64,000 nt of DNA from Escherichia coli (lineage in GTDB: Bacteria > Pseudomonadota > Gammaproteobacteria > Enterobacterales > Enterobacteriaceae), in assembly GCF_003334315.1 (NCBI RefSeq), contig NZ_QOWR01000022.1, one strand, 5' to 3'. Made by a program: the position numbers and the translations under genes. Below are positions 43,109-44,237 of the stretch, piece after piece (position 1 is the first letter of the stretch; each line of letters begins with the position of its first letter). Under the pieces are notes generated by a model. It was given only the letters and a program-made list of their open reading frames with translations, was not told the origin of the DNA and made no database searches.

Positions 43109-43169
43109 AATCAGCTCCCTGGTTAAGGATAGCCTTTAGGCTGCCCGGTCACCATCACGCAAAAACCAA

Positions 43170-43195
43170 CAATCTTGCGCTTTAATTTTTTTCGC
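43170..43195 (-). promoter_or_regulatory. Ada box in the ada promoter
   Basis: Minus strand reads GAAAAAAATTAAAGCGCAAGATTG, matching the recalled ada promoter; overlaps the apbE stop codon. Confidence 0.75.
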
Positions 43196-44237
43196 TGACA
43201 AGGAAGCTTTTAAACTGTGGTGACATCCAGGTTTTAAAGCTATCGCCTTCTTTGGTGATCATATAAACCGCCAGCCCTTCCCGGCGAACAACCTCTTTAG
43301 CTTTCTCCGGCCCGAGTACCATCAAGCCAGTATCCCAGGCATCGGCTTCCAGCGCCGTCGGAGCAATCACCGTCACGGATACCAGATTGTGTTCGATGGG
43401 ACGCCCGGTTTGCGGATCGATAACATGGGAAAGACGTTTGCCGTCCAGTTCGTAATAGTTACGGTAGCTGCCAGAGGTGCTAATCCCATGACCGTTGATA
43501 TCCACCACAGCCTGAACCGCGTTTTCTTTATCGGTTGGTTTTTGAATCGCTACCCGCCACGGCAGGCCTTCACCGTTCATACCACGGCTGTTCAGCGCGC
43601 CGCCCACCGACACCAGATAGCGGGAAATCCCTTCCTGCTCCATCAAGCGTGCCAAATGATCGGCCGCATAGCCTTCGCCGACGGTGGAGAGATCGACATA
43701 TAAATCCGGCAGGTCTTTTTGCAGATATTGCTGATGCGACTGATTGATGACCGTCAGGTGCTGTAAGCCGGTTTTGGCTTTCATCGCATCGATCTGTTCC
43801 TGGCTCGGAATTTGAACCGGCTGTTGTTCCGGGCCAAAGCCCCACAGATTCACCAGCGGCCCGACGGTTATATCCATCGCGCCATCGGTCTTCGCGCCAA
43901 TGCGCAGCGAGGTGGTGACGATATCGGCCATCGCTTCACTTACCGGCCACGGCGATAAACTTTGCGAGTCGTTAAAGCGCATCAGCGCGGAATCTTTTTT
44001 ATAGGTCGAAAGCAGCTGATCGTCGGCGTCCAGTTGGGTCTGAATCTTTTCTTTAAGTTCGGCGCTGCGTTTGGCGTCAATGCCCGGGATGCTGGCACGC
44101 CAGAAGGTACCCATAGTTTTGCCTTCAAGAACGGTAACTTCAGTAGCGTGGGTTTTGGCGGGTTGTGGTTTTTGATCGCAACCAACAAAGAAGAGCGCGG
44201 CAGCCAGCAGTGCCACGCGGGTAAAGCTTATTTCCAT
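43182..44237 (-). CDS. apbE: FAD:protein FMN transferase lipoprotein (ApbE/Ftp)
   Basis: 351-aa ORF with lipobox (LFFVGC). Confidence 0.9.
   Translation of the reverse strand: MEISFTRVALLAAALFFVGCDQKPQPAKTHATEVTVLEGKTMGTFWRASIPGIDAKRSAELKEKIQTQLDADDQLLSTYKKDSALMRFNDSQSLSPWPVSEAMADIVTTSLRIGAKTDGAMDITVGPLVNLWGFGPEQQPVQIPSQEQIDAMKAKTGLQHLTVINQSHQQYLQKDLPDLYVDLSTVGEGYAADHLARLMEQEGISRYLVSVGGALNSRGMNGEGLPWRVAIQKPTDKENAVQAVVDINGHGISTSGSYRNYYELDGKRLSHVIDPQTGRPIEHNLVSVTVIAPTALEADAWDTGLMVLGPEKAKEVVRREGLAVYMITKEGDSFKTWMSPQFKSFLVSEKN

Follow-up and report, generated by a model that had tools for sequence, protein, structure and literature searches.

The methylation-inducible ada-alkB promoter of Escherichia coli and its overlap with the end of apbE

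The Ada site upstream of the Escherichia coli ada and alkB genes lies on the end of apbE, and the surrounding control region is very probably the textbook methylation-inducible ada-alkB promoter, set in a compact tandem junction in which the A box of the site is the last codon of apbE. The element was already known and had been placed correctly; it represents no new type. It is the same as that described previously as the ada promoter and Ada box (Teo 1986; Nakabeppu and Sekiguchi 1986; Landini and Volkert 1995; He et al. 2005), and nothing differs from those accounts as reviews present them (PMC4437013; PMC3788762; PMC6505713). What is added here is that the site as defined by structure overlaps apbE at the level of codons, that this overlap is invariant across the family, and that ada is not insulated from apbE and ompC transcription in E. 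coli; our search of the literature on the ada promoter found no comment that the A box is the last codon of apbE or that the apbE stop codon lies inside the site. According to the literature, Ada methylated on Cys38 would bind AAT-N6-GCAA (43187–43175, minus strand) and recruit RNA polymerase to the weak core promoter within the 73 nt that separate apbE from ada. The mechanism of binding by Cys38-methylated Ada has been reviewed (PMC4437013), and ada and alkB are among the genes most strongly induced by MNNG (PMC6505713).

The apbE-ada junction and the Ada site

The window (the whole stretch of DNA analyzed, 64,000 nucleotides) carries ompC, apbE, ada, alkB, and yojI, all on the minus strand. 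Positions 42000–44400 match K-12 MG1655 with 100% identity and occur in 5422 of 5426 complete genomes, and NC_000913.3 coordinates are obtained by adding 2267297 to window coordinates. The window ompC encodes 376 amino acids (367 in MG1655), so in spite of the MG1655-identical ada-apbE segment the window is not K-12 over its full length. The genes and translation signals are as follows:

44349–45479, minus strand: ompC (open reading frame list, RefSeq)
43182–44237, minus strand: apbE (ftp, b2214) coding sequence, FAD:protein FMN transferase, 351 amino acids, C-terminus V S E K N (open reading frame list, NCBIfam, PDB, RefSeq)
43184–43182, minus strand: apbE stop codon TAA (sequence; TAA in all of the best 80 of 312 relatives)
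43115–43119, minus strand: ada Shine-Dalgarno sequence GGGAG (sequence; aGGAG is kept in the cross-species alignment)
42044–43108, minus strand: ada coding sequence, b2213, 354 amino acids (open reading frame list; NCBIfam NF011964, 751 bits; RefSeq)
41394–42044, minus strand: alkB coding sequence, b2212 (AlkB equivalog match; RefSeq)
39675–41318, minus strand: yojI (open reading frame list, RefSeq)

The ada and alkB reading frames match the Ada and AlkB equivalogs (NCBIfam) and lie directly downstream of the Ada site. The ada stop and alkB start codons overlap as TAATG (42042–42046, minus strand, with base 42044 in common), an arrangement that would fit translational coupling of the two genes in their operon. 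On the minus strand the apbE-ada junction reads ...GTC AGC GAA AAA AAT TAA AGCGCAAGATTGTTGGTTTTTGCGTGATGGTGACCGGGCAGCCTAAAGGCTATCCTTAACCAGGGAGCTGATT ATG, with a spacer of 73 nt. The initial annotation placed the apbE stop codon at 43182–43184, and this assignment is correct: the reading frame aligns from end to end with NCBIfam equivalog NF007774 (1–351 of 351, 725 bits), matches the E. coli ApbE crystal constructs 2O18/4XGV over residues 21–351 through the terminal SEKN, and is annotated identically as RefSeq b2214 (2310479–2311534). Its orthologs agree, since the same end codon is present in 78 of the 79 other species genomes in which the junction was read (among the best 80 of 312 relatives); the exception, Escherichia sp. 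ESNIH1, is described below.

Several definitions of the Ada site, old and new, fall on this junction:

43183–43176, minus strand: classic Ada box octamer AAAGCGCA (pattern match)
43176–43188, minus strand: 13-mer AAATTAAAGCGCA, which matches the historical pattern AAANNAAAGCGCA
43187–43175, minus strand: structurally defined Ada site AAT-N6-GCAA (AATNNNNNNGCAA match)
43185–43187, minus strand: Ada A box AAT, the last sense codon of apbE (Asn351) (AATNNNNNNGCAA match; conservation)
43175–43178, minus strand: Ada B box GCAA (GCAAG in all of the best 80 of 312 relatives; the G at 43174 is invariant too)
43161–43193, minus strand: conserved block GAAAAAAATTAAAGCGCAAGATTGTTGGTTTTT, the putative full upstream contact region of Ada and RNA polymerase (per-column conservation)

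The Ada-regulon patterns AAT-N6-GCAA and AAANNAAAGCGCA thus both match at 43175–43188 (minus strand), upstream of ada-alkB. An overlap of the Ada box at 43176–43183 with the apbE stop had been claimed from the sequence, and its coordinates prove exact; the extent of the overlap depends on which definition is used. The octamer shares two nucleotides with the stop codon (43183–43182), the A-box/B-box site shares six with apbE (AAT plus TAA, with TAA opening the 6-nt spacer that separates the boxes), and the conserved block 43193–43161 shares about 12, its first 12 nucleotides (43182–43193) being the apbE codons Glu-Lys-Asn-stop. In the parts of two reviews that summarize He et al. (2005), the Ada site consists of an A box, AAT, and a B box, GCAA (PMC4437013; PMC6505713). 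The contact description in the first of these has R45 contacting the A box AAT and its backbone the next A/T pair, R71 the following two A/T pairs, and H115 the C just upstream of the B box (PMC4437013). If "downstream" is read there as 5′-to-3′ of AAT-N6-GCAA, the three A/T pairs after the A box would be the T, A, and A of the apbE stop codon.

The octamer alone carries no weight, as it has eight matches in the window where 5.2 are expected and at least eight in 14 of 100 shuffles. The AATNNNNNNGCAA pattern is not enriched either (nine matches in the window, 16.9 expected), and only the 13-mer AAANNAAAGCGCA is rare, with a single occurrence in the window where 0.09 is expected. Support for the site therefore comes from its position and its conservation, and its positional conservation over 80 genomes (the best 80 of 312 relatives) is far beyond chance. 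A second exact copy of AAAGCGCA lies at 42081–42088 (minus strand), inside the 3′ end of ada and 37 nt ahead of the alkB start codon, where it codes for part of R-K-A-Q. No AAT precedes a GCAA by six bases there, and this copy is probably a chance match. That a common octamer merely happens to fall on the stop codon of apbE, or that this stop is mis-annotated, might be entertained from the octamer count and the copy inside ada, but there is practically no chance that either is true: both are ruled out by the uniqueness of the 13-mer in the window, the invariance of the Ada motif at this position in 80 species genomes (the best 80 of 312 relatives), and the profile match, crystal constructs, RefSeq entry, and orthologs that back the stop.

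Conservation of the site and of the apbE codons beneath it

A collection of species-representative genomes was scanned with Ada and the best 80 of 312 relatives were kept; these loci span Escherichia, Citrobacter, Salmonella, Kluyvera, Trabulsiella, Kosakonia, Enterobacter, Lelliottia, Leclercia, Klebsiella, Raoultella, Pseudocitrobacter, and others, and alignment columns were scored after the sequences had been anchored on the apbE stop codon. The 80 genomes are related, and the counts that follow overstate the number of independent events, but synonymous sites in these genes are still well mixed (median top-codon fraction 0.64). Among these best 80 of 312 relatives, all 80 have apbE immediately upstream of ada and in the same orientation, with a spacer of 66–83 nt in most loci and about 230 nt in two. 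AATTAAA is present in 79–80 and GCAAG in 80 of the same 80 (best of 312); the A box is AAT in 79 and CAT (His) in one, Enterobacter asburiae (L036), which is the sole genome with a change at the last apbE codon. Octamer positions 43180 (G) and 43179 (C) are variable, with A in 60 of 80 and 61 of 80, respectively; E. coli has GC here and most species have AA. The comparison supports AAT-N6-GCAA, rather than AAAGCGCA, as the likely constrained Ada motif.

Downstream of GCAAG in the best 80 of 312 relatives comes a GGTTTTT block, beyond which conservation collapses. Within E. coli, three divergent strains show variation on both sides of 43193–43161 and none inside it. The Salmonella loci read GAATTAAAACGCA, which is the Salmonella Ada-site sequence as published (PMC3788762). 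On the protein side, Ada residues C38, C42, C69, C72 (the four zinc ligands, which include the methyl acceptor Cys38), R71, H115, R118 (three residues that contact DNA), and C321 are invariant in 72 species, whereas residue 45 is R or K and residue 114 is F, Y, or W.

The apbE codons under the site behave differently from comparable codons elsewhere in the gene. All 72 of 72 sequences have AAT as the terminal Asn codon. Of the 186 apbE residue columns in which at least 95% of sequences agree, only 3 have one codon throughout, the terminal AAT among them. At the six further conserved Asn positions both AAC and AAT occur (top-codon share 0.54–0.86); the terminal codon is therefore doubly constrained. 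The stop codon is weaker evidence: TAA ends apbE in 80 of 80 genomes (the best 80 of 312 relatives), as against alkB in 64 of 76 and ada in 53 of 79, but because ompC also ends in TAA in 73 of 76, the invariance in apbE is only mildly unusual. In Escherichia sp. ESNIH1 (L078) apbE stops two codons early at an in-frame TAG, and yet AATTAAAGCGCAAG, with its AATTAAA, is intact, which shows that the AAT and TAA bases are kept there for Ada and not for ApbE. To judge from these alignments, the final Asn codon and the stop appear to be held fixed by the transcription factor and not by the protein, and the same six bases, AAT-TAA, carry both protein-coding and Ada-binding information, frozen in every Enterobacteriaceae genome examined. 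As with other transcription factor sites in coding sequence (dual-use codons), coding and binding constraints act together on the apbE AAT and TAA; unlike such sites in general, this one involves only the last two codon positions of the gene. The codon overlap is a by-product of the 73-nt spacer and not a distinct mechanism.

The core promoter

A promoter scan detected no consensus sigma-70 promoter for ada, which is expected because the promoter is activator-dependent. Two conserved hexamers and a likely start site can be placed in the spacer:

43143–43138, minus strand: putative Ada-dependent −10 hexamer CAGCCT (pattern CAnnnT; fixed spacing across genomes)
43130, minus strand: putative ada transcription start, an A (NC_000913.3 ∼2310427; from the CAnnnT spacing and an invariant TA at 43131–43130)
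43131–43126, minus strand: conserved TATCCT (pattern TAnnCT; alignment), which may be the start site and initially transcribed region or a second −10

The pattern CAnnnT lies at a fixed +41 to +46 from the apbE stop in 79 of 80 genomes (the best 80 of 312 relatives), and it is shifted by one in the remaining genome, which has a 1-nt insertion. The −10 would thus be CAGCCT, with ada transcription starting near 43130. A start at 43130 would give a 22-nt leader and place AAT..GCAA at −57 to −45, to be compared with the range of about −60 to −40, upstream of the −35, expected for an ada/aidB-type site. An Ada footprint at −63 to −31 was reportedly obtained by Sakumi and Sekiguchi in 1989, and with a start at 43130 the conserved block 43193–43161 would be its equivalent.

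The TAnnCT hexamer follows the putative −10 by 6–7 nt, and its distance to the Ada site is 6–10 nt greater in Citrobacter and Salmonella; this shift, set against the fixed CAnnnT, disfavors TATCCT as the Ada-dependent −10, although it could be an alternative or additional promoter. In Citrobacter sedlakii (L023) and Klebsiella indica (L077), about 155–160 nt are inserted in the ada leader just after TAnnCT, and the Ada site and both hexamers are still beside apbE, so that TAnnCT stays with the promoter in spite of a leader insertion of ∼155 nt; the K. indica insertion has a short CTTA repeat on either side, as a small mobile element would. Pairs of TTGCGT (43162–43157) with CTAAAG or TAAAGG as −35 and −10 were rejected, as TTGCGT is polymorphic in E. 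coli and is not conserved between species, and CTAAAG and TAAAGG are without the conserved A2/T6 pattern of a −10. At the putative −10 (43141, minus strand) the window and K-12 have CAGCCT, which is unique among the compared genomes (the best 80 of 312 relatives); CAGACT, which is closer to the −10 consensus, is found in three divergent E. coli strains and in six further Escherichia species.

Whichever hexamer is the −10, the conserved elements place the ada core promoter within the 73-nt spacer and not in apbE. The description of the ada promoter as sitting on the last codons of apbE is thus apt for the upstream edge of the activator site, which does overlap the gene, and not for the rest, as the putative −35, −10, and start would all lie in the spacer. 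The Cappable-seq supplements have no entry near 23104xx, and a full-text literature search with the promoter sequence returned no relevant match.

Transcription entering ada from upstream

No intrinsic terminator (a G+C-rich hairpin followed by a T run) was found after apbE on the minus strand between 43109 and 43184. The nearest match of the terminator scan lies inside apbE (43287–43268) and is at chance level, and the fold of the apbE-ada junction (z = −1.77) includes no terminator hairpin. The Term-seq tables (Adams et al. 2021) give no 3′ end and no Rho-termination region in apbE-ada-alkB, nor between ompC and yojI; low apbE expression may account for the lack of ends near apbE. The initial annotation had raised read-through from apbE and pointed to Term-seq for its 3′ end; none is listed there, and the read-through part of that proposal is upheld by the long-read transcripts described below, though the event is rare. 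Upstream lies the ompC terminator, from which the transcripts that leak into apbE and ada come:

44303–44330, minus strand: ompC intrinsic terminator, hairpin 44330–44311 plus T run (terminator scan; Term-seq; SMRT-Cappable-seq termination site)

Its ends map to 2311605 (window 44308) by Term-seq and to 2311603 by SMRT-Cappable-seq. In the latter data set (Yan et al. 2018), 152 of 191 reads from the ompC start at 2312828 end at 2311603 and six pass the terminator. Supplementary Data 2 and 3 of that study list the operon variants ompC-apbE and ompC-apbE-ada (b2215|b2214|b2213), where a variant comprises the genes fully covered by at least the longest read and so possibly by a single read, and the listing has no start site for apbE only or ada only. 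The absence of an apbE terminator, together with the ompC-apbE-ada transcripts, means that read-through across the Ada site exists: transcripts do cross it into ada in unstressed cells, rarely. Few transcripts would leave apbE, many of them ompC leak-through. No consensus-type promoter is present between the ompC terminator and the apbE start (44238–44310), and since the long reads list apbE only in transcripts from the ompC promoter, apbE may depend largely on leak-through of this terminator. The only RNA family match was one to Rfam at chance level (E = 0.39) in the ompC-apbE spacer. At the other end of the operon, tiling arrays detect one MNNG-induced transcript that spans ada, alkB, and yojI (PMC6505713), so the induced operon reads through its downstream end too (39675–42044, minus strand).

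Read-through RNA could in principle fold back on the ada ribosome-binding region. Such fold-back inhibition in IS10 and IS50 reportedly protects a gene from outside transcription (as described by Davis, Simons, and Kleckner in 1985). No hiding of this kind was found in the window, where opening the ribosome-binding region costs 6.32 kcal/mol in the read-through RNA, 6.81 in RNA from the putative start, and 6.93 with shuffled upstream sequence (z = −0.37), and there is no effect in Citrobacter or Salmonella. One minimum-energy fold paired the ada Shine-Dalgarno sequence with codons of apbE; this pairing was set aside, as it is neither conserved nor above shuffled controls in E. coli. On the other hand, the opening cost exceeds that of shuffled controls with z > 2 in 18 of 71 other species, none of them Escherichia, Citrobacter, or Salmonella. 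In Kluyvera (L026, L030, L033, L035, L039, L046, and L066), Pseudocitrobacter (L049, L051, and L052), Klebsiella/Raoultella (Klebsiella L071, L073, and L080), and many Enterobacter, the promoter spacer shows strong complementarity to the ada Shine-Dalgarno/start region. The complementary segment lies about 18–45 nt after the apbE stop and, given the putative start, would be transcribed only in read-through RNA. In Kluyvera UUCCUCCUUUUGG pairs with CUAAAAGGAGGAG, in up to 12 bp and with a compensatory U-A to C-G change in three species, and in Pseudocitrobacter CUCCUCCAG pairs with CUGGAGGAG; no single hairpin in one register was found across genera. The predicted hairpins of Kluyvera, Pseudocitrobacter, Klebsiella, and many Enterobacter thus resemble the IS10/IS50 case in being possible only in read-through RNA, and differ from it in their absence from the window (E. 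coli), Citrobacter, and Salmonella and in having no common register across genera.

Cells hold about one molecule of basal Ada each; it is produced at a constant rate that does not depend on Ada, and its origin has simply been assigned to the ada promoter (PMC6818145; PMC8643705). Read-through from ompC and apbE, rather than the unactivated ada promoter, might instead be the major source of this basal Ada and so set the random delay of the adaptive response. The constant, Ada-independent rate, the ompC-apbE-ada transcripts listed in unstressed cells, and the fact that read-through RNA of E. coli does not hide the ada ribosome-binding region more than controls do all fit such a source, and the anti-Shine-Dalgarno segments in the read-through-only RNA of several other genera suggest that selection notices read-through. 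Nonetheless, the long-read evidence may be a single molecule, and the authors of the basal-expression studies model basal Ada as coming from the ada promoter; we consider a major contribution from read-through unlikely. The fuller proposal, that ompC leak-through supplies much of the basal Ada and that other genera (Kluyvera, Klebsiella, many Enterobacter) evolved a hairpin that blocks it, is a shade less likely still. If it were true, readiness for alkylation repair would be coupled to porin expression through the strong, osmoregulated ompC promoter.

In tandem promoters, transcription from the upstream unit can interfere with the downstream one, as in the promoter occlusion and "sitting duck" models. 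The apbE-ada junction is similar in that an upstream unit without a terminator reads across a downstream promoter, and different in that the upstream flux is very low and the ada promoter is off unless activated. It had been proposed that apbE read-through and Ada binding may interfere with each other, and the Ada site is indeed physically in the path of every apbE transcript, with no terminator between it and the stop codon and with transcripts that cover ada on record. However, few ompC-initiated reads pass the ompC terminator (6 of 191), no apbE-only start is listed, and a weak upstream flux is unlikely to matter for ada; it is improbable that the two measurably interfere, whether by occlusion of the ada promoter or by bound Ada acting as a roadblock to apbE transcripts. 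Any interference is probably small, and read-through would be too weak to disturb induced ada transcription noticeably. A literature search found no paper that discusses the overlap of apbE with the Ada site or interference between them.

The preferred reading, the textbook ada-alkB promoter with its A box on the last codon of apbE, changes little in the understanding of the adaptive response: the position of a textbook regulatory site is confirmed, and the added value is modest and comparative. In E. coli, ada is uninsulated from upstream transcription, and this could bear on the source of basal Ada in single-cell studies.
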